Source: Calditrichia bacterium (GTDB lineage Bacteria > Calditrichota > Calditrichia > RBG-13-44-9 > J075). Taken from it: 64,000 nt of DNA. This document shows positions 5,824 through 62,691 of this stretch, one piece after another (positions within the stretch are counted from its first letter, which is position 1; each line of letters starts with the position of its first letter). A program made the position numbers and the translations under genes. Below the pieces are notes generated by a model that ran no database searches, was not told the DNA's origin, and saw only the letters and a list, made by a program, of their open reading frames with translations. Location: assembly GCA_050633245.1 (NCBI GenBank), contig JBOEGD010000016.1, positions 46-64,045 on the forward strand, written 5' to 3'.

Positions 5824-5846
5824 ATCACTTTTCCGGTTTGGGATAA

Positions 5847-7088
5847 TTATTCATATCTCAATGCTTCAATAGGATGGAGTTTTGCGGCGCGAAAGGCCGG
5901 CACAATACCAGCCAACATGCCAACAAGAATCGAAGTTACAATTGCCACAATCACGATGTTTGGTGAAATGCTCGCTGGCATAACAAATTCATTCAGAACC
6001 ATTGTTAAGCCGGATGCAATTAGCAGACCGATGGTTCCTCCCAGCAAACAAATCACTGATGCTTCCAACATAAACTGAGTCATAATTGCGCGTCTTCTTG
6101 CGCCGATCGCTTTACGGAGGCCAATTTCACGGGTGCGTTCCGTTACTGATACAAACATAATGTTCATCACACCCATTCCGCCCACAAACAGTGAAATGCT
6201 GGTGATAACTAAGCCAACCAACAGAACAACTCCCATAAGCTGGTTGTAAGCATCAATAAGCGTCGTCATTTTATTTACAGAGAAATCATCGCTTTCTGCC
6301 GGTTTCAGCTTGCGGATCTTTCGCATTTCGCCAACCAGTTGATACTCAAATTCATCCATCAACTCGGGCACGGGAGCCTTCACTGCGAAAGTAAAGCTGC
6401 GATTTGCCGAGCCAAAAGATTTCAAAAATGCAGAGAGTGGAACATAAATTTGACGATCAAAGTTTGGTCCGCCGAAAAAGGAGGCACTGCCAAGTTCTTC
6501 CATGACACCAATTACCTGAAAACGCTGTCCATTAATGCGGACATATTTATTAATCGGATCGATATCGCCAAAGAGTTTATCGCGGACGCTCTTGCCAATG
6601 ACACAAACTTCGCGTTTAAACTGAGAATCGAAGGCGGTAATAAATCGACCATATTCCGGTGCACCAACAGAAACAAGCATCTGGTTTTCGGTTGTGCCTG
6701 AGACGGGAATCGACTCCATGGTGTTTGAGCGATACTTGACCGTCATTCGGTCGGACGTGGTGGGGTTCACGGCAGCATAACCGGCTAAGACAGTCTTTAG
6801 TCCGTTGGCTTCGCGAGACTCCAAGCGAGGGCGCTTTTGAATCTCGCGCCAGTCGTCTCCCATATGAACCCACGGCGTGCGGGTGACGTAGAAGACATCC
6901 GAGCCCATACTGGAGATACTATCCTCAAAATTGCGGCCAATGCCGTTTGTAATCGTCATGGTGGTTATGACAGAAGCGATGCCAATAAGAATGCCCAGCG
7001 TTGTGAGCGTTCCGCGCAGCTTGTTAGCACGCAGAGCATCGAATGCAATATGTAGCGCCTCAAGAAACTCGTAGAAAAACTTACGCAT
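5847..7088 (-). CDS. ABC transporter permease (FtsX/MacB-type), paralog of the downstream permease
   Basis: 413 aa with the same architecture and the conserved ...VSVTERTREIGLRKAIGA... motif. Confidence 0.8.
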   Translation of the reverse strand: MRKFFYEFLEALHIAFDALRANKLRGTLTTLGILIGIASVITTMTITNGIGRNFEDSISSMGSDVFYVTRTPWVHMGDDWREIQKRPRLESREANGLKTVLAGYAAVNPTTSDRMTVKYRSNTMESIPVSGTTENQMLVSVGAPEYGRFITAFDSQFKREVCVIGKSVRDKLFGDIDPINKYVRINGQRFQVIGVMEELGSASFFGGPNFDRQIYVPLSAFLKSFGSANRSFTFAVKAPVPELMDEFEYQLVGEMRKIRKLKPAESDDFSVNKMTTLIDAYNQLMGVVLLVGLVITSISLFVGGMGVMNIMFVSVTERTREIGLRKAIGARRRAIMTQFMLEASVICLLGGTIGLLIASGLTMVLNEFVMPASISPNIVIVAIVTSILVGMLAGIVPAFRAAKLHPIEALRYE

Positions 7089-15660: not shown

Positions 15661-18600
15661 TTAGCTTTTCATCTGCGCATTTTTGAGATCCTGCATGGTT
15701 ACTTCTGTCGGAATCTCTATCAGATAAATTTCGCCATCATATTCAAAAACTATTTTATTTCCGTCACTCGTTGCACAGGCTTCAGTCTTATGAAACGTGG
15801 TGCCGTCCTTATATTTTCCACTTCCGTCCTGTAGCGGAGTCATCAGATCGACAGACTCACCATCTTGCCAAAGTTTAATCGTCGTCATAAATCCAATATT
15901 CAGTCCTGTATAATCACTGATCACAACTTTTTCTCCGCCATTGGATGCAGACAGAAAAGGTGGATTGTTTTTAAAGATCGTAAACAGTTTTCTGCTTTCC
16001 TTCGTATTCACATCAACATACATACAGTTAAGTCTTAACGTGCGCTTACGCTTTGTTTTTTCCTCTTCAAAAAACATGACCCCGGAGTTACCGGCATAAA
16101 AAAGGAGATTATTAAACGGGTCTTTCTCAAAAAGCGTCCTCAGGAATCGCCCATTGTGATCATAAACTTTGTTATTGCTTATAACCCCGGATTTATTAGC
16201 AAGTGGTAGAAAACCAAACCGTGACTTTTTAACAGGAAGAGACAACCGCTGTAAGGAATCGCCGCCCACTTCGAAAAAATATTGATACTGTCCGCCAGAG
16301 TTGTAGGCGGTCAGATAAGCATGCTTATTGTTACCAAGCAGGTAGGGTCGATCCCAATCGTAGAAAAACTCATTCTTTTTGGTAATGCGCAGCTTGCGAT
16401 TGCTCTGTAGATTGTGAATATATACATCTTTAAACCAGATCTTTTTTGTCCATTCCTCAACCGGCTTCACGTAAGCAATTCTGCTTCCATCCGGGCTAAT
16501 ATTGGGATACTTGCCTTTCGTTACTTTACGAACAGAATAAAGCAACTCCATCGGAACATCAATGCTGAAGGCACCTTCACCCCGCCCCAGTTCAACATTT
16601 AGACTCTGGGTTTTGTAACGCACGAATTCAAGCCCATCCATGTCCTCAAGCTGGGTAGGATAGACAACGATTTCTTTTTTACCGATCATGTTATCTTCCA
16701 GACGAAACGCCTGTTTACCTGCTTGCTCACCGACAACAACGGCTTTCTCTCCATCAATAAAAACATGAGCTTTCGCCATCGTTGGCACATTTACGATAAT
16801 GTCTCTATGCATACCGAGCCAATACCAATAGCCAGCTCCAATAAGAGCCAGAAAGCCAACAATGACTGCTGCGCGTTTAAGCATGAGCGACATGGGGACA
16901 CCCGTAGGCTGCTGAGGACGACGTCTTTCACGCTCTCCAACAACGGTAACCAGGGTTTCCGGTGTTTCTTCTTCCGTCGTCAGCGCTGGATGTGAAGGCC
17001 ATTCATCTTGCTCTTCCTCGGCCTCCTGATGCTGAGACCATTCATCTTCATCAACGTCTACTAAATGATCGCGAGCCTCTTCGTCCACTTCTTCTTCAGT
17101 TACGACTTCCGAATCAAAATGGGCAGGCGATTCGAGATTCACCATCGTTGCCTCGCCTTCGAGTTCAGCAACATCATCAAGCGCATCTTCAAGTGCTTCT
17201 TCAACAATGTCTTCTTCTGATGAAGGTAAAATTACGATGGTTGTTTCGGTACTATCTGGTAGAAGCGTTGCCTCTTCACCGGTAAAATCTTCGGATTCAG
17301 GTTTCTCGATTTTGTCTAAATCTTCAGCTGTTGGAGTGGCAAGCTCTGGAATGGTAAGATCTTGTTCCGGGTAGTCTTCGTCTTTAATATCTTCGACTAA
17401 CGAGGCTTCAGTTGCCCTGTCAGGATCCAAAAGAATCGTTTCTGAATCGACAAGCAATTCCTCATCATCCGCATCTGCTTTCGTCGTTCCATCCGGCCAG
17501 TCAATTGCCCCGGCTTCACTATCTTCAGTCACCTCGTCAACATCAGAAACATCATCTTCAGAAGCGACTGCATCATTAGTTAATGAGCCGTTGAGTTCGG
17601 CCTCATGATATTCATCGTGAATTTCGTATACGCCATTATCAGAATCGATGGTCACATCTTCCGGAATCTCGATGTCATCATCATCCACCGCGATATCGTC
17701 AGCTTGCTCCTCAAGAAGCGGTGTTGTCGGCGAGGTTTCTACCAGTGGCTCCGAAAGCACACGCATGACGTCTGCCAACTCGGTATCATCGGTTTCAACC
17801 GAGACCGAATCCAAAAAGTCTTCATAGGTCTTTGCAAGTTCTGCAATATCATTCTCACCAACTGCAACAAAGGGAGTAAACTCATCTTCCACAATATCCG
17901 CTTCTTCAACTTGTGGAATAAGCTGTGGATTGCCTTCGTCATCGGGACCGGCATCACCAAGATCTTCCCATTCTTCGAGACTATCGTAAAGATGAAGCGG
18001 GAGCATCCAGTCCAGCGCTTCATATTTGGAAAATCCACTGGGGTCAACTTCCTGAGAATATGCGATAGGCTGGACGGAAACAGCATTCAGCGAAGGAACG
18101 AACTCGCGTAGTTCGCTTAACAGCGTGGCTGTACCGGTTACATCGGCCACAATAAAGCGACAAATGGCAGCAAGACTGTGCATTTTTTCGAGAACGCCCG
18201 GCGCATTTAACGTTTCATAGTCGAAGACAACAGGTAAGTAGCCCTGTTCTCGCAGCTTTTGGGAGACGGCTTTGCGGATGGTACGACGAGACTCTGTAAA
18301 GGCACCAACAAGTAATACTGCCTTTTCACGATAGCCATTTACCAGAACACCGGCATCGTCATCATGGACAATACGATGCACAAACTGAGAGAAGGTCAGT
18401 CCATCCACGGCGATGTAGGGTTCGTTGCGATAAGAAACGACGAGCGAGTGCTCACGCACATTATCAAGCGCAACCTGTTCTAAGCCAAGACCACAAACAG
18501 ATGCTCCGGACAAATCGGCACCAGTTAAGTTTGTGCGAACAAGAATCGTATTATTAAGATTCACATTTCCCAAATTAGCCGAGGATAAGTCGGCATTTGA

Positions 18601-18813
18601 CAATATGACGCCACGTAAATCCGAATTACGAATATCCGAACCGCTTAAATCGGTATCCGTCAGATCGGTATTTCTAAAATCGATGCCACGAAAATCACCT
18701 GCTTTTAGACGGGTGCGACTAAGAATAGGGCGAACTTCCGCGTTGGCTAAGCGCCACTTGTTCCAGGAGTGAACACCTTCCTCAAGGATCGCGAGATGCT
18801 CTTTATTTGCCAT
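15661..18813 (-). CDS. large single-pass membrane protein: N-terminal pentapeptide repeats, Rossmann/TIR-like segment, long acidic disordered region, TM helix, C-terminal TolB/PD40-like beta-propeller region
   Basis: 1050 aa. Residues 1-140 are tandem pentapeptide repeats (...DLTDTDLSGSDIRNSDLRGVILSNADLSSANLGNVNLNNTILVRTNLTGADLSGA...). An ~350 aa Asp/Glu-rich low-complexity stretch follows, then the TM helix AAVIVGFLALIGAGYWYWLGM. The C-terminal part contains PD40-like ...NISPDGSRIAYV... Confidence 0.6.
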   Translation of the reverse strand: MANKEHLAILEEGVHSWNKWRLANAEVRPILSRTRLKAGDFRGIDFRNTDLTDTDLSGSDIRNSDLRGVILSNADLSSANLGNVNLNNTILVRTNLTGADLSGASVCGLGLEQVALDNVREHSLVVSYRNEPYIAVDGLTFSQFVHRIVHDDDAGVLVNGYREKAVLLVGAFTESRRTIRKAVSQKLREQGYLPVVFDYETLNAPGVLEKMHSLAAICRFIVADVTGTATLLSELREFVPSLNAVSVQPIAYSQEVDPSGFSKYEALDWMLPLHLYDSLEEWEDLGDAGPDDEGNPQLIPQVEEADIVEDEFTPFVAVGENDIAELAKTYEDFLDSVSVETDDTELADVMRVLSEPLVETSPTTPLLEEQADDIAVDDDDIEIPEDVTIDSDNGVYEIHDEYHEAELNGSLTNDAVASEDDVSDVDEVTEDSEAGAIDWPDGTTKADADDEELLVDSETILLDPDRATEASLVEDIKDEDYPEQDLTIPELATPTAEDLDKIEKPESEDFTGEEATLLPDSTETTIVILPSSEEDIVEEALEDALDDVAELEGEATMVNLESPAHFDSEVVTEEEVDEEARDHLVDVDEDEWSQHQEAEEEQDEWPSHPALTTEEETPETLVTVVGERERRRPQQPTGVPMSLMLKRAAVIVGFLALIGAGYWYWLGMHRDIIVNVPTMAKAHVFIDGEKAVVVGEQAGKQAFRLEDNMIGKKEIVVYPTQLEDMDGLEFVRYKTQSLNVELGRGEGAFSIDVPMELLYSVRKVTKGKYPNISPDGSRIAYVKPVEEWTKKIWFKDVYIHNLQSNRKLRITKKNEFFYDWDRPYLLGNNKHAYLTAYNSGGQYQYFFEVGGDSLQRLSLPVKKSRFGFLPLANKSGVISNNKVYDHNGRFLRTLFEKDPFNNLLFYAGNSGVMFFEEEKTKRKRTLRLNCMYVDVNTKESRKLFTIFKNNPPFLSASNGGEKVVISDYTGLNIGFMTTIKLWQDGESVDLMTPLQDGSGKYKDGTTFHKTEACATSDGNKIVFEYDGEIYLIEIPTEVTMQDLKNAQMKS

Positions 18814-39066: not shown

Positions 39067-40869
39067 TTGTTGAGCAGCAGTCCATATATAGTCGGCATCG
39101 ATCTCGGCACAACGCACTGCGTTTTGGCCTACAGTAAGATTGACGAATCGTCCGATACCCCCTCAAAAATTGAATTAATGCGCATTCCGCAGGTTGTCAG
39201 CCCCGGTGAAATTAAAGAGTTGGCGCTTCTACCCTCTTTCTTACTGCTCCCCGGCCCGCATGATGTGCCGGAAGGTGGCCTGGCGCTACCTTGGGATGCT
39301 GCAAAAGACTATGCGGTTGGTGAATATGCGCGCAGTCGTGGAAATGAAATCCCAAACAGACTAGTGGCCTCTGCAAAGTCCTGGCTTTGCCATAGTGGTG
39401 TAGATCGCAGGGATGCTTTATTGCCCTGGAACAGCGGTGACGATGCACGACGCGTCTCACCGATTGAGGCGACGCAACGCTACCTCGAACACATTCGCGA
39501 CGCCTGGAACGCTCAAATGGCCGAAGATGACAAAAAGCATCGCCTGGAAGAACAGACGATCTATCTGACTGTTCCGGCTTCTTTTGATGCCGTAGCACGT
39601 GAATTGACTGCTGAAGCCGCCAGTGCAGCCGGGCTAAAGCGATTGACGCTATTGGAAGAACCACAGGCGGCCTTCTACGCCTGGCTGGAAGCAAAAGGCA
39701 ATAACTGGCGCAATGATGTCGAGCTTGGAGAATCTATTCTCGTTTGCGACGTAGGCGGCGGAACCAGCGACTTCAGTTTAATTGAGGTCAGCGGCAATGA
39801 AGGTTCACTGGAACTTGAACGTGCAGCGGTTGGCGAACATATTCTGCTTGGTGGCGACAATATGGATCTCGCGCTGGCCTATCTGATTCGCTCAAAGCTT
39901 GCACAAAACGGTACGAATATCGATGATTGGCAGTTCAAAGGCCTATGGCATAGCTGTCGGTCTGCTAAGGAGAAGCTGCTTAATAATCCGGAGATTGAAA
40001 CTGAGCCTTTGGTTATTCTTGGAAGAGGATCTTCCCTGATTGGCGGAACCATTCGCAGCGAGCTTACCCGCGAAGAAATGAATACGTCACTGGTCGATGG
40101 TTTTTTTCCCGCCGGAAATAATGATGATTTTCCACAGGAAGGCACGCGAATAGGAATGCGCGAAATGGGACTTCCCTATGCAGCAGACGCTGCAGTAACG
40201 CGCTACCTGGCGCACTTTCTAAGTAAGCATAGTGGGGAAACAACAGCATTTCCTTCCGCCGTGCTGTTTAATGGCGGCGTAATGAAGGCGGAGTCTTTCA
40301 GAACACGCGTTTTGGAAGCACTTTCTGCCTGGAAAGGCGATACCGTACGCGAGCTTAAAGCCAATGACCTGGATCTCGCCGTGGCAGTTGGTGCAACCTA
40401 CTATGGTCTTGCGCAATCCGGCAAGGGGATTCGTATTCGCGCCGGAGCTGCACGGGCCTACTATATCGGTGTCGAAAGCTCGATGCCCGCGGTTCCCGGC
40501 ATCCCTATTCCAATAAATGCTTTAAACGTCCTGCCATTCGGCACCGAAGAAGGAACAGAAACGGATATTCGTCAGCGCGAATTTGGCCTAATTGTCGGAC
40601 AGCCGGTAGTCTTCCATCTGCTCGCCTCCACGGCAAATGCAGATGACAAAGCCGGTGAAATTGTAGAAGACTGGGCCGGTAATATTCAGAATGTCAGCAC
40701 AATGGAATTAAATCTACCCGCAAGTGCCGACGAAGCTGGTGGAACGATTATCCCGGTATGGCTGCAGAGTAAACTGACGGAAGTCGGCACGCTTGAACTG
40801 TGGTGCGTTTCCACTAAAGATGATCGTCGCTGGAAACTTGAATTTTCAATACGAGATGAAACGGAGTAA
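39067..40869 (+). CDS. Hsp70-family protein (divergent DnaK paralog, no C-terminal lid)
   Basis: 600 aa. Hsp70 NBD signatures YIVGIDLGTTHCVLAY (phosphate 1) and ...ILVCDVGGGTSDFSLIEV... (connect 1). Then a beta-rich SBD-like segment (...TIIPVWLQSKLTEVGTLELWCVSTKDDRRWKLEFSI...). No alpha-helical lid or EEVD. Confidence 0.8.
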   Translation: MLSSSPYIVGIDLGTTHCVLAYSKIDESSDTPSKIELMRIPQVVSPGEIKELALLPSFLLLPGPHDVPEGGLALPWDAAKDYAVGEYARSRGNEIPNRLVASAKSWLCHSGVDRRDALLPWNSGDDARRVSPIEATQRYLEHIRDAWNAQMAEDDKKHRLEEQTIYLTVPASFDAVARELTAEAASAAGLKRLTLLEEPQAAFYAWLEAKGNNWRNDVELGESILVCDVGGGTSDFSLIEVSGNEGSLELERAAVGEHILLGGDNMDLALAYLIRSKLAQNGTNIDDWQFKGLWHSCRSAKEKLLNNPEIETEPLVILGRGSSLIGGTIRSELTREEMNTSLVDGFFPAGNNDDFPQEGTRIGMREMGLPYAADAAVTRYLAHFLSKHSGETTAFPSAVLFNGGVMKAESFRTRVLEALSAWKGDTVRELKANDLDLAVAVGATYYGLAQSGKGIRIRAGAARAYYIGVESSMPAVPGIPIPINALNVLPFGTEEGTETDIRQREFGLIVGQPVVFHLLASTANADDKAGEIVEDWAGNIQNVSTMELNLPASADEAGGTIIPVWLQSKLTEVGTLELWCVSTKDDRRWKLEFSIRDETE

Positions 40870-40877
40870 CTACCTGA

Positions 40878-43688
40878 ATGAGTTCGCTGTTCGACTTTCA
40901 AAATCGCGATTACAAATATATTATTGGTGTCGACCTCGGCACCACCAATTCCGCCGTAGCCTATGTAGACCTCAGCACCACGCGTCGTGCAATCAACTTT
41001 TTTCGAATTCCGCAACTTGTAGCCGCTGGTGAAATCGCAGAACGCGATATTCAACCCTCGTTTTTATATCTTCCGGGCGCATACGACTTACCTGAAGGCA
41101 GCACAGAACTTCCCTGGGACAAGAAGCGCGCTTATATGGTAGGTGAATTCGCTCGTGAACAGGGGGCAAACGTCCCGTCACGGTTGGTGGCCTCTGCAAA
41201 ATCCTGGCTATGCCATGCCGGTGTAAATCGCAAAGCACCAATCCTGCCTTGGGGGGCACCAGAGGAAATCTCCAAAGTGTCTCCATTGGAAGCCAGCAAA
41301 CGCTATCTGCAGCACATCAAGGAATCCTGGAACCACATGATGGCGAAAGGACGCGAAGATTTTTCCTTTGAAGAGCAGCTGGTAGTCTTAACCGTTCCGG
41401 CATCTTTTGATGAAGTTGCTCGCGAACTTACCGTAACCGCAGCGCAGGAAGCGGGTATTCCGCGAGTAGTGTTATTGGAAGAGCCACTCGCCGCTTTTTA
41501 TGCCTGGCTTTCGGCAAATGAATCGACCTGGCAAGAACAAATGCAGGTTGGGCAGCTCATCCTGGTTTGTGACGTTGGCGGTGGAACAACAGACCTTTCA
41601 CTGGTGGGCATTTTCGAAGGCGAAAAGGGCCTTCGTTTTAATCGCATGGCAGTTGGTGAACACTTGATGCTGGGTGGTGACAATATGGACCTGGCACTTG
41701 GGCGCTACCTCGAGCAAAAGCTGATGGGACAGCCCGGTCAGCTCGACAACCAGCGCTGGCATCAGCTTGTCTATCAATGTCGCAAGGCAAAAGAGACGCT
41801 GCTGGGTAATTCCAACCTGGCTGCTATGGATATTACCGTGATGGGAAGTGCGGGAAAGCTCATCGCCAATACCCTTAAAGGCAACTTTACTCAGGAAGAT
41901 ATTCAGAAAATTATTCTGGAAGGATTTTTTCCGAAAAGTGCGCTGGGCGAAAACCCCGACAATTCTCCACGTAGCGGCCTAACCGACCTCGGACTACCTT
42001 ATGTGCAAGATGCGGCTGTTACACGCCATCTGAGCGCTTTCTGGCGACGGTTTGAGAAGCTGATGCTCGATGAAACAGGCCGCAGCTCGGTATTCCCGGA
42101 TTTCGTACTATTCAATGGTGGTGTTCTCAGCCCGGAACTAATTCGCAATCACATTCGTGGCGTTGTTGGCGACTGGTTTGCACCGCTTGCCGGAGATGGT
42201 TGGACGCCCGCAGAATTAGATAATCCAAGACCAGACTTATCCGTCGCTATCGGCGCCGCATATTATGGAAAAGTTCGCGTCGGTGAAGGCGTGCGCGTCG
42301 GAAGCGGCAGTCCGCGAGCGTACTATTTAAATCTCGATGCAACAGCCGGTAAGGAGAAAGAACTTTGCCTGTTGCCACGCGGCGCCGAGGAAGGCGCAGA
42401 TATTCAGCTATCTTCACATAATTTTGAAGTGCTGACCAATCAACCGGTTGCATTTAACCTTGCGACATCAAGCACGCGGCTGGGTGACAAACTGGGCGAT
42501 GTGGTAAAGCTGGAAAGCGAGGAAAGAACCGCGCTGCCGGCAATTCAAACGGTACTTCGCTACGGCAAGAAGAATGAGGCACGCTCACTTCCCGTTGAAG
42601 TCGCAGTTCGACTTACCGAAATAGGCACGCTGGAGCTTTGGTGCCAGTCAAATGAAAGTGATCATCGCTGGCAGCTGCAGTTCGATGTACGCCTCGAAGC
42701 CGATGCGGCGTCTACTTCAAAAGGCGAGACTATCGACGCGGCATTGGTCGAAGAAGCCAATGCTGCAATAGAGAACACGTTTACCTCTTCGGAAAACGCG
42801 CTAAAACCAAGCAAGTTAATGAACGAACTTGAAGAAACACTCGATATGCAAAAAAATAAATGGCCAACCTCACTTATTCGTAAAATGGCAGACAGCCTCC
42901 TGGGAATGCCGGAAGCGCGAGATCTCTCCTTTGCGCATGAATCCCGCTGGCTTAACCTGCTGGGCTACAGTATGCGGCCTGGATTTGGCGATCCGGTCGA
43001 CGATTGGCGCATCAAGCAGTCCTGGAAGCTCTTTCTACAGGGTTTGCGCAATCCAAAGCAGCCGCAGGTAGTAAGTCAATGGTGGATTTTCTGGCGCCGC
43101 ATTGCCGGTGGACTCAGTGAAGGGCGGCAATCACAAATTTATCAGATGTATGCGCCCCTCGTTCATACCGGCAAAACAGCGAAGAAAAAGAGCGAGTTCG
43201 GTAAGCTCAACCCGCAGCAGGAACTGGAAGTTTGGATGCTGCTGGCAAACCTGGAACATTTACCCAAAAATGCCAAACAGGAATTGGGGCGCATCTTATT
43301 AAAACGTATTGCGAAGGGCAATGCCAAGCCGCAGGAATATTGGGCGCTGGGCCGCTTTGGCGCACGCATCCCTTTTTATGGTCATATCGACAATGCCCTA
43401 TCCGGAGCGGAGGTAGCAAGCTGGTGCGAATCTCTAATGAAGTCCAATCCGCAACTTTCAAATAATACCGCGATGACGTTCGTACACCTGGCGCGTAAAA
43501 CAGGTGATCACACACGCGATCTCTCAGGCGAGGTGTTCGAGAAAGTTGAAAACTGGCTGGCACAATCAGACAAGCAGCGCTATGTTGAATTGCTCAATAA
43601 TCCTTCCGCTGCTCTCGAACAAGACGAAAGAAATCAGCAATTCGGAGAATCTCTTCCATCCGGTCTCATCCTTCAATCCAGCCAATAA
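40878..43688 (+). CDS. Hsp70-family protein (second divergent paralog) with ~330 aa unique C-terminal helical extension
   Basis: 936 aa, 8 bp after the first paralog. NBD motifs YIIGVDLGTTNSAVAY and ...ILVCDVGGGTTDLSLVGI.... SBD-beta-like segment (...RSLPVEVAVRLTEIGTLELWCQSNESDHRWQLQFDV...). A C-terminal extension (...WLNLLGYSMRPGFGDPVDDWRIKQSWKLFLQGL...) has no recognisable family. Confidence 0.8.
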   Translation: MSSLFDFQNRDYKYIIGVDLGTTNSAVAYVDLSTTRRAINFFRIPQLVAAGEIAERDIQPSFLYLPGAYDLPEGSTELPWDKKRAYMVGEFAREQGANVPSRLVASAKSWLCHAGVNRKAPILPWGAPEEISKVSPLEASKRYLQHIKESWNHMMAKGREDFSFEEQLVVLTVPASFDEVARELTVTAAQEAGIPRVVLLEEPLAAFYAWLSANESTWQEQMQVGQLILVCDVGGGTTDLSLVGIFEGEKGLRFNRMAVGEHLMLGGDNMDLALGRYLEQKLMGQPGQLDNQRWHQLVYQCRKAKETLLGNSNLAAMDITVMGSAGKLIANTLKGNFTQEDIQKIILEGFFPKSALGENPDNSPRSGLTDLGLPYVQDAAVTRHLSAFWRRFEKLMLDETGRSSVFPDFVLFNGGVLSPELIRNHIRGVVGDWFAPLAGDGWTPAELDNPRPDLSVAIGAAYYGKVRVGEGVRVGSGSPRAYYLNLDATAGKEKELCLLPRGAEEGADIQLSSHNFEVLTNQPVAFNLATSSTRLGDKLGDVVKLESEERTALPAIQTVLRYGKKNEARSLPVEVAVRLTEIGTLELWCQSNESDHRWQLQFDVRLEADAASTSKGETIDAALVEEANAAIENTFTSSENALKPSKLMNELEETLDMQKNKWPTSLIRKMADSLLGMPEARDLSFAHESRWLNLLGYSMRPGFGDPVDDWRIKQSWKLFLQGLRNPKQPQVVSQWWIFWRRIAGGLSEGRQSQIYQMYAPLVHTGKTAKKKSEFGKLNPQQELEVWMLLANLEHLPKNAKQELGRILLKRIAKGNAKPQEYWALGRFGARIPFYGHIDNALSGAEVASWCESLMKSNPQLSNNTAMTFVHLARKTGDHTRDLSGEVFEKVENWLAQSDKQRYVELLNNPSAALEQDERNQQFGESLPSGLILQSSQ

Positions 43689-54540: not shown

Positions 54541-54895
54541 TTATCTGTTTCCGGTTTGCCAATCATATAGTTTACCATCACGGATGTCAGCACGAAAATA
54601 CGCTGCCACATGCCAGCGATGGTCGGGATTATGATACCAGTCCAAATGATCAGCGCTTACACCAGTTGGAGGGCCCAGCACCGCTTCAGCGTCTGCGCGG
54701 GACATTCCGTCATGCAGCGTTCCATTGTCGATCAAAGCCTTGCGTTCAAGAAAACTGCTCGGCGTGCCGTACGGCCAGCCTTCGGTCACTAGCACTTTTT
54801 CTGACGTGTCTGTTGCTGCTTTTGCAGACTTGGCCTGCTGTTTGTCAGTATGATTACAGCCTGTAATTATGATTGACAGGACAATCGATAGTACC
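54541..54895 (-). CDS. hypothetical lipoprotein
   Basis: Start placed at MVLSIVLSIIITGC (lipobox-like) to avoid a 92-nt overlap with the upstream CHAT gene. Last gene downstream of the NLR/CHAT operon on the same strand. Confidence 0.35.
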
Positions 54896-54910
54896 ATTGC
54901 TCTAATCACT

Positions 54911-56005
54911 CTACAATTCCTCGTCATTTTTTTGCCCCAGAAACACAGGTGTATCCGCACCGTCAAGATTACGCATATCAAGCGCATTGCAACCGATTTC
55001 ATATGCTATTTTATAAGACTTTCCGGCACCCAGAGTATCATAAAACGCAACCGAAAATTCTATCGCTGCCTGCTGCTCAATTTTGTTGCTCATACCAATA
55101 ACGCAGGGAATGTGTGCGCTAATTGCCCTGGCCTGTGGTTCAGAATAACAAGCATTGAGTATGACGCACTCAATATTCTCGCTCAGTATACCCAACAAAT
55201 TTGCCAATGCAGCCTCACCTATCGGCTTTCCGAGTCCATTTTCATCCTCTAGTAGAACGGCGCTCTTATTCTCAGAACGCATACCGTGTCCGCTAAAATG
55301 CACGATATTCGGCTCCTCATCTAAAATAGCACGGCGTAAGTCTGTAGTGCGAACCGCCATTCGCGTTACCAGCTCAAACTCATCGCGACGATTTGCACGG
55401 CGAAGGCCCTCCTCTATCTCGCGGATTTCCTCGGCGATGCGCAGCGGATCCTGATCAATCGGCTGGGCAGCCAGCACCAGAATTTTACGCTTTTTCTTAT
55501 TTGCGGTATGATTCTTATTGGATCGTTTATCGATGGTCACTTGCGCAGCATCACCGGTAATATTGATTTGATCACCTTCTACCTGCGTTGTGCTTTGATC
55601 GACAGTATAGTCACCCGTTACCTTCCCTGGCGAGTTTTGACCATGCGTTGTAATGGTATCACCATAACTGACGTTCTGTACATTGCCATCGCCCTGCTGG
55701 TTGGGGCTATTGGTAAACTGGTTACCGCTTTGGGAATAGTGCTTTTTAGGTTGAATCTCTTTCATTAGCTGTTGCAGCACCGTATTGCTCTCTACATAGG
55801 CTTCAAAATACTTGGCGCTTTTGCGATCTGTCTCACTGGCCTTCATTGCCTCTTCGACAATAGCCGTTAGCTGCTCCTCGCTGATCAGAAACTTCTGTAG
55901 TCGTTCGCGCAGGAATTGTTTGGTTACACTTCCGGCGGCCTTTACAGCGTCATAACAAATTCCGCCTAGCACAGCGGAGGTGAGAAATGCGTTTACTCCG
56001 TCCAT
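54911..56005 (-). CDS. CHAT-domain (caspase-like) protease with N-terminal ~70 aa domain and Gly/Gln-rich motif-bearing linker
   Basis: 364 aa. CHAT catalytic dyad context ...PNIVHFSGHGMRSEN... (His) and ...CVILNACYSEP... (Cys). The linker (aa ~95-170) carries motifs shared with the upstream NLR N-termini. Intergenic gap to the upstream NLR gene is 26 bp. Confidence 0.75.
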   Translation of the reverse strand: MDGVNAFLTSAVLGGICYDAVKAAGSVTKQFLRERLQKFLISEEQLTAIVEEAMKASETDRKSAKYFEAYVESNTVLQQLMKEIQPKKHYSQSGNQFTNSPNQQGDGNVQNVSYGDTITTHGQNSPGKVTGDYTVDQSTTQVEGDQINITGDAAQVTIDKRSNKNHTANKKKRKILVLAAQPIDQDPLRIAEEIREIEEGLRRANRRDEFELVTRMAVRTTDLRRAILDEEPNIVHFSGHGMRSENKSAVLLEDENGLGKPIGEAALANLLGILSENIECVILNACYSEPQARAISAHIPCVIGMSNKIEQQAAIEFSVAFYDTLGAGKSYKIAYEIGCNALDMRNLDGADTPVFLGQKNDEEL

Positions 56006-56031: not shown

Positions 56032-58209
56032 CTACATTTTCTTGCTAATTCGATCTATAAAATCCTGAATTTTCTGATGATAAGGATGCTCTTCCGGCAA
56101 GGCGGCATGGTAAATTTCTGCTGCCCGAGAGCAGTAATTCAGGGCAGCTTCGAAATGCCTCATATCCTCTAAGATAGACCCCATTACCCAGCAGGACAGT
56201 GCTAAATCAGGATGATTCGCATGCAAAACCGGCTCACGAATTTTTAATGCCTTCTGTTGCGCATCCAACGCATCTTCTAAACGACCCAAAGAACGATAAA
56301 CCGTCGACAGATTGCTGTAAGATGTGGCTAAGTCAGGATGCCTCTCATCCAAAATAGCTCCAAAAATCTCATGCGCCTTTAGCTGCACTTCCAACCCATC
56401 TTCTAAACGATCCAAAGACTGATAAATAGACGAAAGGTTGTTGTAGGACTGTGCTAAAGAAGGATGAGTCGCATCTAAAACGGACTCACGGATGTTCACT
56501 GCCTTCTGTTGCGCTTCCAACCCATCTTCTAAACGACCCAAAGAAAGATAAACCGTCGACAGATTGTTGTAGGAGGTAGCTAAAGAAGGGTGAGTTGCAT
56601 CTAAAACGGACATTTTAATCTTTAATGCCTTCTGCTGTGACTCCAGCGCATCCTCAAAACGCCCCAAAGAATTATAAATCAACGACAGATTGTTGTAGGA
56701 CTGTGCTATGTCTGGATGATCCACACCCAAAACGGACTCACGACAATTCAAAGCCTTCTGCTGCGACTCTAGCGCATCCTCAAAACGCCCCAAAGAATTA
56801 TAAATCAACGACAGATTGTTGTAGGAGTTGGCCAGTGAAAGATCATCAGCCTCTAGCAGCTTTTCTTCAATGTCTATTCCGCGCAGCTGCACCTCAAGAG
56901 AGTCAGTTATTCGTCCAAAATGGTAATAAATCCAAGCCAGGCGTTCCATAAATCTCGCCAACGAGGTATTAGCGTCCGTCAAATAAGACACCATATCCTC
57001 TGCATAAGGAACAAGACTTGCCTTTGCAAGCGGATTGTCTCCAGGCTGGACGGTTAGTAAGTTTGTCAGCGATTCGATCAGCTTGCTACACCCCCCCGCA
57101 GTGGGTTTCAACCGCTCCCGTGCCACCGCAGCAATAATTGGGTGCAAAAAGACTTCAAAACCTTCCTGCTCAGACAGCCAGCCTTTGGCGACTAGTGAAG
57201 TAAGGGTATCGCTAATGTCATCCTGTAGCCAGTCGCTGAGCATTTGTGCTTCCATTGGCTCAGAAGGCAATACGCATAGGTTAGCAAGTACGTGGGCTTC
57301 TTCTGCAGATAGACCTTCCATGTTAAAAACGTTATTCAGGTGCTCAAAAAGCTTCTTCTCATCAATTTGATCATGCCAGAGGGTCTTAACCTTTTTCGGC
57401 AGAGCTTCATTTAGGTTAAAGCCGATCTCCTTCAGACGTTCCAGCAGTACGGTAATACTTATTTTGGCATGGTTGGCCGTCTTGGCAAGCAGCTCGACAG
57501 TCAACGTATGCTGCCCGGCAAGGTCGATTATCTCCTCCAGCGTTTCCACATCGCGCTTGCCCTTATAGAAGCGATAGAAAATCTCTCTGCAGCTTTCCAC
57601 ATCCAGAAATCCCAGTGGATAGCTCTCAAAACCTGCCAGCTGCAGCCGCGAGCTGGTTACCACCTTTAGCGGCAGGCCGCGCAGGTTGGCCAGATCAGCG
57701 TCTTCTGCATCAAGAATGTCATCGACAACCAGCAAAGACTTTACGGGCAGATTTGCAATCAAATGCATAATAAGCGCAAACTGTTCGTCGAGCGTTTGGC
57801 CCTGCTGAGGCGTAAATACCTCTGCGCTAATCGCCCGAACCAAAGACTCACGAAAGCTGCCAAAATAGTCTACCCACAGCAAATGATCAAAATTCGTCTT
57901 CTGTTCATGGAAAAAATGACGGCACAGCTCAGTCTTGCCTATGCCACCCAGGCCATTCACTACCACCACTGCTCCGGCATCATTCAGCGAGGTTTCCAGC
58001 TGGCGCAAATCTTCTTTCCGACCAACAAAACCCGCATTCTGCGGAGGTGTTCCGGTGAGGAATTTCGGTAATAGTTTATCACCGGAAATATACTGGTTTA
58101 TGATGTTTCCATAGTGAACGCGCTGAGTTCCACCATCGCCCTGCATATTGGGGCTTTGGATAAAGGCATTGTCAGCCTGCTCTTGCTCTTTTGGTTTCTT
58201 CTTTGGCAT
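56032..58209 (-). CDS. NLR-like STAND NTPase (NB-ARC-type P-loop) with C-terminal TPR repeats, paralog A
   Basis: 725 aa. N-terminal Lys-rich/Gly-Gln motif segment MPKKKPKEQEQADNAFIQSPNMQGDGGTQRVHYGNIINQYISG, then KLLPKFLTGTPPQNAGFVGR, then P-loop VVVVNGLGGIGKTELC and Walker B LLVVDDI. The C-terminus has ~8 TPR units (...SYNNLSLIYNSLGRFEDALESQQKAL...). Confidence 0.8.
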   Translation of the reverse strand: MPKKKPKEQEQADNAFIQSPNMQGDGGTQRVHYGNIINQYISGDKLLPKFLTGTPPQNAGFVGRKEDLRQLETSLNDAGAVVVVNGLGGIGKTELCRHFFHEQKTNFDHLLWVDYFGSFRESLVRAISAEVFTPQQGQTLDEQFALIMHLIANLPVKSLLVVDDILDAEDADLANLRGLPLKVVTSSRLQLAGFESYPLGFLDVESCREIFYRFYKGKRDVETLEEIIDLAGQHTLTVELLAKTANHAKISITVLLERLKEIGFNLNEALPKKVKTLWHDQIDEKKLFEHLNNVFNMEGLSAEEAHVLANLCVLPSEPMEAQMLSDWLQDDISDTLTSLVAKGWLSEQEGFEVFLHPIIAAVARERLKPTAGGCSKLIESLTNLLTVQPGDNPLAKASLVPYAEDMVSYLTDANTSLARFMERLAWIYYHFGRITDSLEVQLRGIDIEEKLLEADDLSLANSYNNLSLIYNSLGRFEDALESQQKALNCRESVLGVDHPDIAQSYNNLSLIYNSLGRFEDALESQQKALKIKMSVLDATHPSLATSYNNLSTVYLSLGRLEDGLEAQQKAVNIRESVLDATHPSLAQSYNNLSSIYQSLDRLEDGLEVQLKAHEIFGAILDERHPDLATSYSNLSTVYRSLGRLEDALDAQQKALKIREPVLHANHPDLALSCWVMGSILEDMRHFEAALNYCSRAAEIYHAALPEEHPYHQKIQDFIDRISKKM

Positions 58210-58224
58210 CGTATAAACCTATTT

Positions 58225-60294
58225 TTATTCTTTCGTCTCGTCCAGTTTCTCCCTGTAGGATTGTAAATTATGAAATGCGATATCAAGATGAGGATGCCCA
58301 CCCGTAAAATTTTTTTGCCAAATCTGCAAGGCCCTTTCTTCAAACACCACTGCAAAATTATAGCTTTCCATGACCGCGTAAATACTCGCAAGGTTGTGAT
58401 AAGACTGCGCTAAGTCCGGGTGATCACCAGACAAAGTTGAGCCACGTATTTCAACCGATTTCTGCTGCATTTCCAAAGCCTCAGCGAAACAATATAACCC
58501 CTTATAAATAAGCGACAGGTTATTGTAGGACGTCGCTAGATTAGGATGATCCACACCCATAACCGAGATATAAATTTTATGTGCTTTCTTCTGCGTAGCC
58601 AACGCCTCGTCCAAACGTCCCATTGATTCAAAAATAAGTGACAAATTGTTGTAAGAGGTTGCTAAATTAGGGTGATCAGAGGGCAACGCCGACTCGAATA
58701 TGTCAATTGCTTTCTGCTGGGAAGCCAGTGCATTATCTAAACGACTCAAAGAACGATAAATTAGCGACAAATTATTGTAGGAGCTTCCTAAGTCAAGGTG
58801 ATCGGGTGGTAATAGTAACTCACTAATTTTAAGATCTTTCAGCTGCGACGCAAGCGCATCATCCAAACGCCCTAAAGAAAGATAAATTTGCGACAGGTCG
58901 TTATAGGAATCAGCCAATAAGGCATCGGTGCTATGAAGGAGCTGCTCTCGAATAGCAACGGAGCGTAGCTGCACCCTGAGGGATTCATTTAACTTTCCAA
59001 TTCCACGATATACCCAGCCCAAATAATACCCCAATGTCGCCAAGATTAGATGATCTTCGTTAAGATGGTTAAACAGTTCCTGACTGTAGGGAAGAAAAAT
59101 TGATTTACTAATTGGATTATCCCCCGGCTTCATTTCAAGTTTACTGATAAGCGAGTTGACCAAGATATTACAAGACATTGCCTTTGGCTTCAGCCGTTCC
59201 CGAGCCACGGCAGCAATAATTGGGTGCAAAAACACTTCAAAACCTTCCTGCTCAGACAGCCAGCCTTTGGCGACTAGTGAAGTGAGGGTATCGCTAATGT
59301 CATCCTGTAGCCAGTCGCTTAGTATTGCGGCTTCCATAGGCTCAGACGGCAATACACATAGATTAGCCAGCACGTAGGCTTCCTCTTCTGACAGGCTGTC
59401 CATTGCAAAAACGTTGTTTAAATGCTCAAAAAGCTTCTTTTCATCGACCTGCTCATGCCAGAGCATCTTCACGTTCTTTGGCAAGGCCTCATTCAGATTA
59501 AAGCCGATATCTATCAGGCGTTCAAACAGAACGGCAATGCTGATTTTTGCATGGTTGGCCGTCTTGGCAAGCAGCTCGACGGTCAGAGTATGCTGCCCGG
59601 TAAGATCGATCACGGCATCCAGCGTTTCCTCATCGCGCTTGCCGTTGTAAAAGCGATAGAAAACTTCCCGGCAGCTTTCAACGTCCAGAAATCCCAACGG
59701 ATAGCTTTCAAAACCTTCCAGCTGTAGACGTGAGCTGGTAACCACCTTTAGCGGCAGGCCGCGCAGTGCGGCCAGATCAGCGTCTTCTGCATCAAGAATG
59801 TCATCAACCAGCAGTAATGACTTTTCCGGCAAGTCGGCAAGAATAAGCATCACCTGCTCAAACTGTTCATTTAATGTTTGCCCCTCTCGCGGTCTGAATA
59901 CGTCTGTTCTAATAGCACGTACTAATGATTCCCGAAAGTTGCCGAGATAATCTACCCAGAGCAGGTGCTCAAACTTCGCCTGCTGTTCATGAAAAAAATG
60001 CCGGCACAGCTCGGTTTTGCCAATTCCACCCAGGCCATTCACCACCACCACTGCTCCGGCATCATTCAGCGAGGTTTCCAGCTGACGCAGATCTTCCTCC
60101 CGACCAAAGAAACCTGCATTCTGCGGTGGCGTGCCGGTGAGGAATTTGGGCAGCGGTTTTTCACCGGAAATATATTGATTTATGATATTTCCATAGTGAA
60201 CGTGCTGCGTATTGCCATCGCCCTGCTGATTCGGGCTTTGGCTAAAGGCATTAGCGCTCTGCTCTTGCTTTTTTGGCTTCTTTTTTGACGACAT
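58225..60294 (-). CDS. NLR-like STAND NTPase with C-terminal TPR repeats, paralog B
   Basis: 689 aa with N-terminus MSSKKKPKKQEQSANAFSQSPNQQGDGNTQHVHYGNIINQYISG and the same P-loop GLGGIGKTEL. The TPR region diverges from paralog A. 15 bp gap to A. Confidence 0.8.
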   Translation of the reverse strand: MSSKKKPKKQEQSANAFSQSPNQQGDGNTQHVHYGNIINQYISGEKPLPKFLTGTPPQNAGFFGREEDLRQLETSLNDAGAVVVVNGLGGIGKTELCRHFFHEQQAKFEHLLWVDYLGNFRESLVRAIRTDVFRPREGQTLNEQFEQVMLILADLPEKSLLLVDDILDAEDADLAALRGLPLKVVTSSRLQLEGFESYPLGFLDVESCREVFYRFYNGKRDEETLDAVIDLTGQHTLTVELLAKTANHAKISIAVLFERLIDIGFNLNEALPKNVKMLWHEQVDEKKLFEHLNNVFAMDSLSEEEAYVLANLCVLPSEPMEAAILSDWLQDDISDTLTSLVAKGWLSEQEGFEVFLHPIIAAVARERLKPKAMSCNILVNSLISKLEMKPGDNPISKSIFLPYSQELFNHLNEDHLILATLGYYLGWVYRGIGKLNESLRVQLRSVAIREQLLHSTDALLADSYNDLSQIYLSLGRLDDALASQLKDLKISELLLPPDHLDLGSSYNNLSLIYRSLSRLDNALASQQKAIDIFESALPSDHPNLATSYNNLSLIFESMGRLDEALATQKKAHKIYISVMGVDHPNLATSYNNLSLIYKGLYCFAEALEMQQKSVEIRGSTLSGDHPDLAQSYHNLASIYAVMESYNFAVVFEERALQIWQKNFTGGHPHLDIAFHNLQSYREKLDETKE

Positions 60295-60315
60295 AGTATG
60301 GACCTAGTTTTGTTG

Positions 60316-62259
60316 CTATTTCGTCTCATCCAGTTTCTCTTGATAGGATTGCAAAGCACTGGATGAACTGTCAACGTGAGGGTGCCCATCAGGAAAGTTC
60401 ACCTCAAGTATTTGCAGGGCCTTCGCTTCGAGTTCTAGTGCCTTCTGGTAATTTTTCTGCACTGCATAAATGCCGGCTAGGTTGTGATAGGAAATCGCTA
60501 AATGAGGATGAGCCGTATCCAAAACAATTTCAGCAATTTTGTGCGCTTTCTCTTGCGTAGCCGACGCCTCGTCCAAACGCCCCAAAGAACGATAAATCAG
60601 TGACAGATTGTTGTAGGACCCCGCTACATGGGGATGAGTCGAATCCAAAGCCGACTTAAGTATTTTGTGCGCTTTCTCTTGCGCAGCCAATGCCTCATCC
60701 AAACGACTCAAAGAACGATAAATCAGTGACAGATTGTTGTAGGACGTCGCTAATAAAGGATGATTTGCTTCCAACACTGACTCGCTGATTTCAATATCCT
60801 TCTGCTGCGCAGCCAATGCCTCATCCAAACGCCCCAAAGACTGAAAGGTTAGTGCCAAATTGGAATAGGATGAAGCCAGAGAATTATCATTATTTTCTAA
60901 CAGCCGCTCTTCGATCTCAAGCCCACGGTGTTGAACTTTTAGAGAGTCTTCTAACCTTCCAAGATCGCGGTAAACCCAAGCCAGGTGAAACATCAATTTT
61001 GCCACCAGCGTACTATCTTCATTCAATTGATCGACCAGTTTTTGCGCAAAGGGCACATAGCCGGCACGACGAAGTGGATTATCTTCCGGCTCAACAGTCA
61101 GCTTTATTGTAAGCGATTCGATCAGCTTCCTACAGGTGTCGGGAGTGGGCTCTAACAGTTCGCGAGCCACTGCGGCAATAATCGGGTGCAAAAACACTTC
61201 AAAACCTTCCTGCTCAGACAGCCAGCCTTTAGCTGTGAGGGCAGTCAGCGTATCGCTGAGATCCTTTTTCAGCCAGTCGCTTAAGGTCTGGGCTTCCAAT
61301 GGTTCAGACGGCAGCACACAGAAATTAGACAAAACCTCGACCTCGTCGTCAGTAAGGTCCTCCATTGCAAAGACGTTTCTTAAGTGCTCAAAGAGCTTCT
61401 TTTCATCAATCTCGTCATGCCAGAGCGTCTTTACGTTCTTCGGTAGAGCCTCATTCAGGTTAAAGCCGATCTCCTTCAAGCGTTCAACCAGATCCGCAAT
61501 GCTGATTTTGGCATGATTGGCTGTCTTGGCCAAAAGCTCGACGGTAAGCGTATGCTGCCCGGCAAGGTCGATAATCTCCTCCAGCGTTTGCTCATCGCGC
61601 CTGCCCTTGTAAAAGCGATAGAAAATCTCTTTGCAGCTTTCCATATCCAGAAATCCCAGCGGATAGCTTTCAAAGCCTTCCAGCTGTAAGCGCGAGCTGC
61701 TAACCACCTTTAGCGGCAGGCTGCGCAAGGCCGCTAAATCGGGATCATTAACATCATCAATATCATCAACAACCAGCAGGGTCTTCCTCGGCAAATTGGT
61801 AGCCAGCCCCATAACCAGCGCAAACTGCTCATCCAGAGTCTGCCCTTCGGTTGGCATAAATACTTCGGATCGCATTACCCGCACCAAAGACTCGCGGAAG
61901 CTACCGAGATAATCCACCCACAGCAGGTGCGTAAACTGCTCTTTCTGCCGGTGAAAAAACTGCCGGCACAGCTCGGTTTTGCCAATCCCGCCCAGACCGT
62001 TCACCACAACCACCGCCCCGGCACTGTTCAGCGTATTTTCCAACTGCGCGAGGTCTTCCTCCCGGCCAAAAAAGCCGGCATTTTGCGGTGGCGTACCGGT
62101 AAGAAATTTGGGCAGCGGCTTTTGCTGCGGAAGATTGTTAATCGTGCGCTTATCAATATTTACGGATGCCTGTTCACCGCTAATATTTAGCTGGTCATTG
62201 GCAATTTTAGTTTTTGAGTGGCTGACAGAAGTCTGTTGAGGCTTTTTCTTTTTTGCCAA
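60316..62259 (-). CDS. NLR-like STAND NTPase with C-terminal TPR repeats, paralog C
   Basis: 647 aa with a distinct N-terminal motif MAKKKKPQQTSVSHSKTKIANDQLNISGEQASVNIDKRTINNL, then the shared KPLPKFLTGTPPQNAGFFGREEDL and P-loop GLGGIGKTEL. 21 bp gap to B. Confidence 0.8.
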   Translation of the reverse strand: MAKKKKPQQTSVSHSKTKIANDQLNISGEQASVNIDKRTINNLPQQKPLPKFLTGTPPQNAGFFGREEDLAQLENTLNSAGAVVVVNGLGGIGKTELCRQFFHRQKEQFTHLLWVDYLGSFRESLVRVMRSEVFMPTEGQTLDEQFALVMGLATNLPRKTLLVVDDIDDVNDPDLAALRSLPLKVVSSSRLQLEGFESYPLGFLDMESCKEIFYRFYKGRRDEQTLEEIIDLAGQHTLTVELLAKTANHAKISIADLVERLKEIGFNLNEALPKNVKTLWHDEIDEKKLFEHLRNVFAMEDLTDDEVEVLSNFCVLPSEPLEAQTLSDWLKKDLSDTLTALTAKGWLSEQEGFEVFLHPIIAAVARELLEPTPDTCRKLIESLTIKLTVEPEDNPLRRAGYVPFAQKLVDQLNEDSTLVAKLMFHLAWVYRDLGRLEDSLKVQHRGLEIEERLLENNDNSLASSYSNLALTFQSLGRLDEALAAQQKDIEISESVLEANHPLLATSYNNLSLIYRSLSRLDEALAAQEKAHKILKSALDSTHPHVAGSYNNLSLIYRSLGRLDEASATQEKAHKIAEIVLDTAHPHLAISYHNLAGIYAVQKNYQKALELEAKALQILEVNFPDGHPHVDSSSSALQSYQEKLDETK

Positions 62260-62691
62260 GGCTGGTTGCTCCCTATTGCTTTATGCAACGTTTATCCAGC
62301 TCGCCTGTCCTGGAATCAGCAGTAACACGTTGCTGACACAAAATTCAGGTAGGTCTATGATTGTCACTACTTTAATAGGTGCAGATATAGGGGAGATTTC
62401 GCAAAAAGATATAATTTTTTTGCTAAAATTTCAAGGCTTGAAAAAACCAGTCGCATCCTTTTTAGCAGTTCGCATGAGAATATAGATATTTATTGCTGAG
62501 GAAAATATCTGCAGGATCTCCGTCAGCATCTCGACTCTGCTCGATGTGATAAACGGATCAAACAGGTTAAGACCAATTTGTTCTGTTGTTCATAGTTTAT
62601 AAGCAAATTAAGATGAGGTAGCAAACAAAAAAGGAGGCTCCGCAAATTGCAGAGCCTCCTCGAGTAAAGATCTAATCATGATTTTAGAAGA

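Follow-up and report, generated by a model that had tools for sequence, protein, structure and literature searches.

Three NB-ARC-TPR paralogs and a putative shared effector in a Calditrichia bacterium: an old tandem array with an apparent hybrid gene and candidate amyloid-type signaling motifs

Introduction

How did three neighboring NLR-like genes of one bacterial locus come to resemble one another in some parts and to differ in others, and to which output is each of them connected? These questions are raised by a 64,000-nucleotide (nt) stretch of DNA from the metagenome-assembled genome (MAG) of a Calditrichia bacterium (assembly GCA_050633245.1, contig JBOEGD010000016.1, positions 46 to 64,045; hereafter the window), in which positions 56032-62259 hold three paralogs, here called genes A, B and C, next to a fourth gene, E, a putative shared effector. 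In plants and fungi, NLR clusters (Podospora HNWD, plant R-gene clusters) evolve by unequal crossing-over, gene conversion and repeat shuffling. A preliminary description of the window had read A, B and C as recent tandem duplicates whose nucleotide-binding core is homogenized by gene conversion while the recognition and signaling ends diverge. The account that we favor, with moderate confidence, is that the three are paralogous NB-ARC-TPR sensors sharing one executioner, E, in an array that would have formed by unequal crossing-over and would signal through amyloid-type motifs; we infer the functional part of this account from sequence and from known systems.

Locus Layout and Predicted Domains

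The limits first given for three collinear minus-strand open reading frames (ORFs) are exact: gene C at 60316..62259 (647 amino acids, aa), gene B at 58225..60294 (689 aa) and gene A at 56032..58209 (725 aa). C begins with TTG, a start that we accept because the M-x-KKKKP beginning which it gives to the protein is conserved in A and B too. Pfam matches to NB-ARC (31.3, 30.9 and 24.4 bits for A, B and C, respectively; cutoff 23.5) and to AAA_16 (32.9-37.5; cutoff 32.6) lie near residues 60-180 in all three proteins, those to TPR_10/TPR_12 extend from about residue 440 to the end (E = 1e-37 to 1e-69), and the Walker A (GLGGIGKTE) and Walker B (LL(V/L)VDDI) motifs are intact and invariant. By these features A, B and C are predicted STAND NTPases of the NB-ARC clade with a TPR sensor, that is, bacterial NLR-like proteins; the C-terminal tail of A is longer than those of B and C and is its own.

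Gene E (54911..56005, minus strand; 364 aa) follows A, giving the order C-B-A-E with all four genes collinear on the minus strand. The spacer between C and B (60295-60315) measures 21 nt and is homologous to the 15-nt spacer between B and A (58210-58224), and 26 nt separate A from E. A promoter-like site (62406..62434, minus strand; by consensus scan only) lies upstream of C, as does the terminator, with a 14-bp stem, of the preceding acyl-CoA dehydrogenase gene (62631-62661). Because of this terminator, the promoter-like site and the short spacers of 15-26 nt, C-B-A-E looks like one four-gene operon.

Matching Motifs in the Sensor Heads and in Gene E

E carries, in this order, a HetE-N domain (aa 7-105; Pfam, 5.6e-15), a type-1 motif, an SPGKV motif, a type-2 motif and a CHAT domain (aa ~172-346; PF12770, 4.2e-12 over aa 172-330). 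The CHAT domain also matches PDB 8tl0 (1.4e-12), drew the PADLOC matches chat and SAVED_CHAT, and has its His and Cys motifs intact, with HFSGHG and LNACYS present; from general knowledge of the fold we take these to be the catalytic His-Cys dyad. The N-terminus of E aligns with PDB 9h9v ("Babybass"; E = 8e-7 to 6e-6), in which the helix with FLTS..L.GI.YD is conserved, and carries D2, G15, Y18 and D19 at the places aligned to residues that Bab requires for activity. Bab is a Bell-related executioner from the Bab/Agp abortive-infection system of E. coli ECOR25, assigned to class 11 of the bacterial amyloid signaling sequences (BASS11); it is switched on when the N-terminal BASS11 motif of its partner templates the C-terminal motif of Bab into amyloid, and its mutants D2A, G11A/K, Y14A and D15A are inactive (10.1101/2024.11.07.622273). 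Relatives of E aa 1-170, gathered by an index-free HMMER scan, number 47 and are mostly Bab-like proteins of 110-145 aa. The C-terminal motifs of four short HetE-N proteins (P0197, P0199, P0200 and P0203) resemble type 1 (F.NSP[VI].QG.G), and no CHAT domain was found in the eight long relatives scanned with Pfam.

The motifs of E recur at the heads of the sensors. BLASTP aligns the type-1 head of A (aa 1-40; 58090..58209, minus strand) with E aa 81-121 (44%, E = 8e-9) and that of B (aa 6-41; 60172..60279, minus strand) with E aa 85-121 (57%, E = 2e-11), while the type-2 head of C (aa 11-39; 62143..62229, minus strand) matches E aa 134-162 (48%, E = 3e-8). Within E, the type-1 copy (aa 85-121; 55643..55753, minus strand) directly follows the Bab-like domain, the position that BASS11 has in Bab, and the copy matched by the head of C lies at 55520..55606 (minus strand). 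The type-1 motif of B is 73% identical to E 55653-55732 at the nucleotide level, over 80 nt. Residues N/Q/G/V/I/S/T make up 58-82% of the motifs and K/P/L 4-17%, and nowhere else in the window, beyond the heads and E, does either type occur. A recent exchange of motifs between E and the NLR heads was considered and rejected, the nucleotide identity being only 55-66%, with identical codons at 11/18, 8/15 and 5/14 of the conserved residues; an adaptor of the effector-associated domain (EAD) type was likewise rejected, with no EAD Pfam match in A, B, C or E at E <= 0.01.

The distribution of the two types is as first described, with type 1 in A and B (81% aa identity) and type 2 in C, whose head is unalignable with the others. 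Over the first 45 codons A and B are 82% identical in nucleotides, and 36-38% against C, which is the chance level. The switch of type is bounded by the common M-x-KKKKP start on one side and by KPLPKFLTGTPPQNAGF on the other, and because these boundaries are sharp on both sides the head difference reads as the replacement of a motif cassette and not as gradual drift.

Between its type-1 and type-2 copies E holds the third motif, TITTHGQNSPGKVTGDYTV (aa ~116-137; 55595..55660, minus strand), for which no gene of the window has a matching head; it is probably a third signaling address with its partner elsewhere. The TITTHGQNSPGKVTGDYTV motif was also observed in another locus (L022, GCA_028284905.1, 4528-7906), where it is common to an 88-aa transmembrane (TM) protein, in which a TM helix precedes it, and to a CHAT protein (P0079), the two flanking an NB-ARC-TPR homolog. 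The 88-aa ORF (4528-4794) lies 56 nt upstream of this NLR homolog (4851-6962) and in another frame, and the NLR as called begins a few residues before its P-loop; the ORF could be a frameshift-split N-terminus or a true separate small gene.

Divergence and Selection in the Three Paralogs

A, B and C are mutually closest relatives (59-66% aa identity), and their similarity is far above chance; what had been overstated is its degree and its claimed uniformity. Each gene does carry the homologous blocks at matching relative positions, 2082 and 1962 nt apart from start to start. The identity of about 90% over more than 250 bp that was ascribed to all three genes was not recovered: the best 250-nt windows anywhere reach 87.6% (A-B), 86.4% (A-C) and 85.2% (B-C), with none above 88%, and the block named as the example (57100-57420 in A, 59182-59502 in B and 61144-61464 in C) is 83.8% identical between A and B, 75.4% between A and C and 77.6% between B and C. 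The P-loop region does repeat at 87-89% between A and B, but only at 70-81% against C. Identities of 92-98% are confined to tracts of ~100-120 nt, one pair at a time.

The conserved NTPase core was delimited by a gap-free codon alignment of codons 47-375 (57091..58077 in A, 59173-60159 in B and 61135-62121 in C, all on the minus strand), over which nucleotide identity is 82% for A-B, 75% for A-C and 77% for B-C. Synonymous divergence (dS) in the core by the Nei-Gojobori method (NG86), whose estimates are here near saturation, is 0.77 for A-B, 1.02 for B-C and 1.55 for A-C; measured as the proportion of synonymous differences (pS), several 40-codon core windows stand at 0.8-0.9 and are saturated, and many segments at 0.6-0.9. 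Because of these values the duplication was not recent, contrary to what had been proposed, and the paralogs are largely established as old yet lineage-specific. The ratio of nonsynonymous to synonymous divergence (dN/dS) in the core is 0.12 (A-B), 0.14 (B-C) and 0.09 (A-C), and in the TPR part 0.37, 0.20 and 0.31, respectively. The conservation of the core at the protein level is mainly the result of purifying selection (dN/dS ~0.1), whereas the TPR parts are relaxed relative to the core, with no sign of overall positive selection.

The longest exact run found in all three genes measures 35 nt (A 57152-57186, B 59234-59268, C 61196-61230) and codes for a winged-helix segment, "EGFEVFLHPII"; the same run extends to 50 nt exact in A-B and to 47 nt in B-C. 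This three-way identity may reflect three-way conversion or a constraint at the nucleotide level.

Proposed Origin of the Array and the Apparently Hybrid Gene B

That the genes arose by tandem duplication is borne out, the paralogs being lineage-specific and their homology continuous through the stop codon and the spacer at both junctions: the C-to-B junction, followed from the last ~60 nt of C over the stop codon and the spacer into the start of B, aligns without interruption with the corresponding junction from B to A. The head and 5' core of B are A-like (81% aa identity in the head), and its C-terminal end, LQSY.EKLDETK, is common to C, as is its order of TPR units. In a max-chi2 scan with B as the query, the A-like share of B drops from 58% to 31% near codon 484 (p = 0.001 on all sites, 0.13 on third positions; the scans overall gave 0.001-0.009). 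Sites polarized with outgroups at 40% identity join A with B by 4 to 1 in the core and B with C by 8 to 1 in the TPR part, although this rooting gave few and conflicting sites and is weak support only. B looks like a hybrid in which an A-type head and 5' core are joined to a C-type TPR tail.

The most likely history of the array is the following. A two-gene ancestor, [C-type][A-type], would have undergone unequal crossing-over of a misaligned pair to give [C][A-head/C-tail][A], and the same event would have doubled the tail-spacer-head junction. Since that event purifying selection has kept the NTPase core, with only a few short ectopic conversion tracts, and the TPR arrays have accumulated substitutions, have gained or lost units and, inside A and inside C, have swapped sequence between units.

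Gene Conversion Tracts

To locate conversion, pS was scanned in 40-codon windows along the gap-free core, with significance assessed by permutation of codon columns. For A-B it ranges from 0.14 (codons 327-366) to 0.90 (codons 266-305; range p = 0.0012), the minimum of 0.14 comparing with 0.48 overall (p = 0.007); for A-C the minimum is 0.16 (codons 198-237) against 0.66 overall (p = 0.0002). Segments also differ in how often the site patterns A=B, A=C and B=C occur (p = 1e-5 to 1e-3; third positions 5e-4 to 1e-3), and 13 consecutive polymorphic sites are identical in A and B (p = 0.002, GENECONV-style longest-run test), whereas longest-run tests on third positions alone were not significant (p = 0.06-0.85). 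The nearest relative may change along the gene, as judged from only three sequences and outgroups at 40% identity, with tests on third positions alone partly non-significant.

The A-B minimum marks a candidate conversion tract at A 57118-57237 and B 59200-59319 (C equivalent 61162-61281; minus strand), which encodes ...GWLSEQEGFEVFLHPIIAAVAR and is 96.7% identical in nucleotides; here pS between A and B is 0.14 with no nonsynonymous difference (pN 0), in contrast to a pS of 0.57 for A-C and 0.50 for B-C and nucleotide identities of 81-83% for these two pairs. A candidate A-C tract (A 57505-57624, C 61549-61668; minus strand) is 92.5% identical with a pS of 0.16, while A-B (pS 0.46) and B-C (pS 0.32) are both 83% identical there. 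The GC content at third codon positions (GC3) is unremarkable in the tracts (0.53-0.62). Because the low-pS tracts are specific to single pairs, some conversion has taken place, and the scans support a few short ectopic conversions, one between A and B around the winged-helix "FLHP" region and one between A and C further upstream. At ~120 nt each and with a dS of ~0.15-0.18, the tracts are themselves not young. Of the proposed homogenization of the core by gene conversion there remain the pair-specific tracts of low pS; these are short and old, the core is kept by purifying selection, and ongoing homogenization is not what the data show.

TPR Arrays

The TPR arrays are built of 42-aa units (126 nt; consensus xLAxSYNNLSLIYxSLGRLxxALxxQxKAxxIxxSxLxxxHP), with seven units in A (56083..56964), six in B (58291..59046) and five in C (60379..61008), all on the minus strand. 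The preliminary description was right that the ends diverge, since the TPR parts are 59-66% identical in nucleotides compared with 75-82% for the core and the arrays differ in unit number; the mechanisms are ones that it had not named. Units A1-A5 are nearer to one another than to any unit of B or C, with A3 and A5 85% identical in nucleotides (pS 0.27) and A1 and A2 78% (pS 0.38) with an exact run of 56 nt. The B units mostly pair with those of C by position (B2-C2 71%, B3-C3 73%, B5-C4 61%), and C2 and C3 are 81% identical (pS 0.22). On these figures the youngest exchanges at the locus lie between TPR units inside A and inside C, not in the gene cores.

Relatives and Known Systems

Among 5.8 billion protein clusters, the best match to A, B or C other than the three themselves has at most 46% identity, and a scan of genome contigs found relatives at <=39% only. 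The nearest NLR relatives mostly have a TIR or Bell-like domain fused at the N-terminus. These "all-in-one" TIR-/Bell-NB-ARC-TPR proteins, from Omnitrophota, Aminicenantes, KSB1 and Clostridia MAGs (P0004-P0055; L003), are the nearest relatives of the sensor body (37-46% identity), have the same TPR_10/12 repeat type and often have their paralogs on one contig. Unlike them, the sensors of the window have a short motif in place of the effector, which is encoded in a separate gene, and no triple tandem array was seen among the all-in-one relatives inspected. In a Clostridia MAG (L003, 9635-13348) we observed a 1237-aa protein in which Bab/HetE-N is fused to an NTPase-TPR body with a C-terminal AAA_21/AbiEii-like ATPase; it is an all-in-one counterpart of the arrangement that is split between genes in the window.

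Among the nearest known parallels is the Bab/Agp system: as there, the N-terminal domain of E is a Bab homolog (E ~1e-6) followed at the same place by an N/Q/G-rich motif, the same motif heads the sensor encoded next door, and the genes are adjacent and collinear. Whereas Bab has 109 aa and ends with its motif, E has two or three different tandem motifs and a C-terminal CHAT domain. In the Bell/NLR pairs of BASS1-10, from Actinobacteria and Cyanobacteria, the motif heads the NLR and also follows the Bell domain encoded by the adjacent collinear gene; BASS motifs are rich in N/Q/G/V/I and poor in K/P/L, CHAT has been reported as an alternative effector domain, and a Bell protein with two NLR partners appears in Table S2 of Dyrka 2020 (10.1101/2020.01.06.895854). 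The locus is like these pairs in motif placement, in its closely spaced collinear genes, in its NB-ARC and TPR sensors and in motif composition, and by eye the type-2 core GDQINI resembles the BASS8 rows GRDQ[IF]NI of that table. It departs from them in that several motifs, where they occur there, are pseudorepeats of a single one, while the tandem motifs here differ and would address different paralogs, in that Bell and CHAT are joined in one polypeptide, and in that the host is a Calditrichia MAG and not one of the filamentous groups emphasized there.

One fungal effector may answer to many NLRs (PMC9815663). The arrangement proposed here resembles HET-S/NWD2 and other fungal pairs, in which the product of the adjacent gene is a membrane-targeting executioner whose amyloid motif is templated by the NLR oligomer. 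The motifs here have no sequence relation to the fungal ones, and the fungal effectors have no protease domain. The coupling of STAND NTPases to caspase-like effectors by EADs, through shared modules in adjacent genes, is widespread (PMC7159879), and the locus has in common with it a small module present in both an NTPase and a caspase-superfamily effector of one operon, adjacent-gene copies being the most alike. EADs are globular domains with Pfam models, whereas the modules here are low-complexity beta-type motifs of ~25-30 residues. With the NLR clusters of plants and fungi the locus shares tandem paralogs, a crossover chimera, patchy conversion and repeat arrays with varying unit numbers and internal exchange of units. 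It differs from them in being a bacterial operon of much older divergence, with an internal repeat identity (up to 85%) below that of the "highly internally conserved" fungal repeats.

Surroundings of the Locus

A 153-aa ORF (54541-55002, minus strand) shares ~90 nt with the 3' end of E; it matched no protein family and is probably not a gene. There is also a terminator-like hairpin at 54601-54618. Elsewhere in the window, 39067-43688 (plus strand) holds two adjacent Hsp70-like genes encoding 600 and 936 aa, the longer protein with a C-terminal DUF3731 "DnaK-related" domain, and 15661-18813 (minus strand) encodes a protein of 1050 aa whose N-terminal part has pentapeptide repeats (weak matches of the HetL/Alr5209 type) and whose body is otherwise unannotated.

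Discussion

Under the account that we favor, each sensor would bind its own trigger by its TPR array and oligomerize by its NB-ARC module, and the oligomer would cluster the N/Q/G-rich head motifs, of ~25-30 residues, into a beta-rich, amyloid-like seed. The seed would act as a template for its cognate motif in E, with A and B signaling through type 1 and C through type 2, and E would then free its Bab/Bell-like, membrane-attacking N-terminal domain and/or activate its CHAT protease, with cell death of the abortive-infection type as the outcome. A bolder version, which we regard as possible though doubtful, is that E is a signal-integrating executioner reading two, perhaps three, orthogonal tandem amyloid address codes, and that B is a natural rewiring by which a C-type array was moved onto the type-1 channel.

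Several observations weigh against this account. On the functional side, the motifs of E are internal (aa 85-162) and precede CHAT, and do not form the C-terminus of a short effector of ~110-140 aa; a single-sequence AlphaFold2 (AF2) model of E has a predicted local distance difference test (pLDDT) score of 38.5, and no structural claim is drawn from it; PADLOC sees no complete known system, only generic TPR and CHAT matches; and there is no obvious defense island around the locus in the window. On the historical side, the hybrid signal in B is weaker at synonymous sites alone, and pS between the TPR parts of B and C (0.65) exceeds that between the cores of A and B (0.48). The B-C tail being more diverged than the A-B head, a single event needs either later A-B conversion or a faster turnover of the TPR part. 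The comparison covers three sequences without a close outgroup, so that part of the mosaic could stem from region-specific shifts in rate, and all of the sequence comes from one MAG contig.

The history of the array can be told in other ways. A recent tandem triplication, with a core kept near-identical by ongoing conversion and with diversifying ends, agrees with the blocks at the same relative positions, with the two short tracts of 92-97% identity and with a significantly mosaic synonymous divergence; yet the core dS of 0.77-1.55 with many segments at pS 0.6-0.9, the best 250-nt windows, all below 88%, the dS of ~0.15 in the converted tracts themselves and a core conserved at the protein level make us consider it very unlikely. 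At the other extreme, old duplicates might never have exchanged sequence, the tracts of low divergence being due to nucleotide or codon constraint and the hybrid appearance of B to differences in rate. The third-position results, both for the longest runs and for the breakpoint in B, lean that way, the 35-nt three-way run at A 57152-57186 could be a common constraint, and A-B and B-C are themselves somewhat low within the A-C tract. But the tracts are pair-specific (A-B pS 0.14 against 0.57 and 0.50), their GC3 is unremarkable, permutation of the window scan gives p = 0.0002-0.007, and homology through the junctions and spacers, with common ends adjacent to non-coding sequence, is hard to obtain from rate shifts, so that we rate a history without exchange as rather unlikely. 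Least credible of all, to the point of being scarcely worth entertaining, is an assembly artifact, a spurious tandem array pieced together from strain variants of one gene: it could appeal to the MAG origin of the sequence and to the record of each protein, A, B and C being found once each, on a single contig, but the copies differ by 18-33% in nucleotides and also in TPR unit number, head motif and C-terminus, and they have distinct spacers and intact reading frames on a 220-kb contig.

As to function, the main alternative is that the motifs would be homotypic docking peptides of the EAD type, or a linker, tethering E to the sensor oligomer, with CHAT activated by induced proximity in the way of caspases on an apoptosome. 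The wide occurrence of EAD-type coupling in adjacent genes (PMC7159879) and the internal position of the motifs of E, with CHAT following, fit docking well enough to keep it a credible if unlikely reading. Against it stand the four proteins' lack of a Pfam EAD match, the N/Q/G-rich, beta-prone composition of modules of ~25-30 residues, which are not globular helical domains, and the domain just upstream, homologous to Bab, whose amyloid-templated activation has been shown experimentally.

Duplication and conversion as seen here are ordinary in the evolution of NLR families; the notable part is the apparent wiring of three sensors with different TPR arrays to one Bab-like and CHAT executioner by way of different short tandem motifs, one of the sensors having the look of a crossover hybrid. 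The combination of three sensors, heterologous tandem motifs and a Bell plus CHAT effector is new within the known Bell/BASS-NLR kind. If the bolder version is true, E would be the first dual effector to combine Bell and caspase, and this in a phylum that is not known to be multicellular, and the operon would offer a small natural setting in which to test how specific amyloid signaling is and how far its motifs cross-seed. If the motifs are amyloid seeds, Bell/BASS-type signaling would be extended to Calditrichia and to a protease-bearing effector, and the locus would allow one to ask how seeds are specific and how new sensor-effector wiring arises in bacteria.

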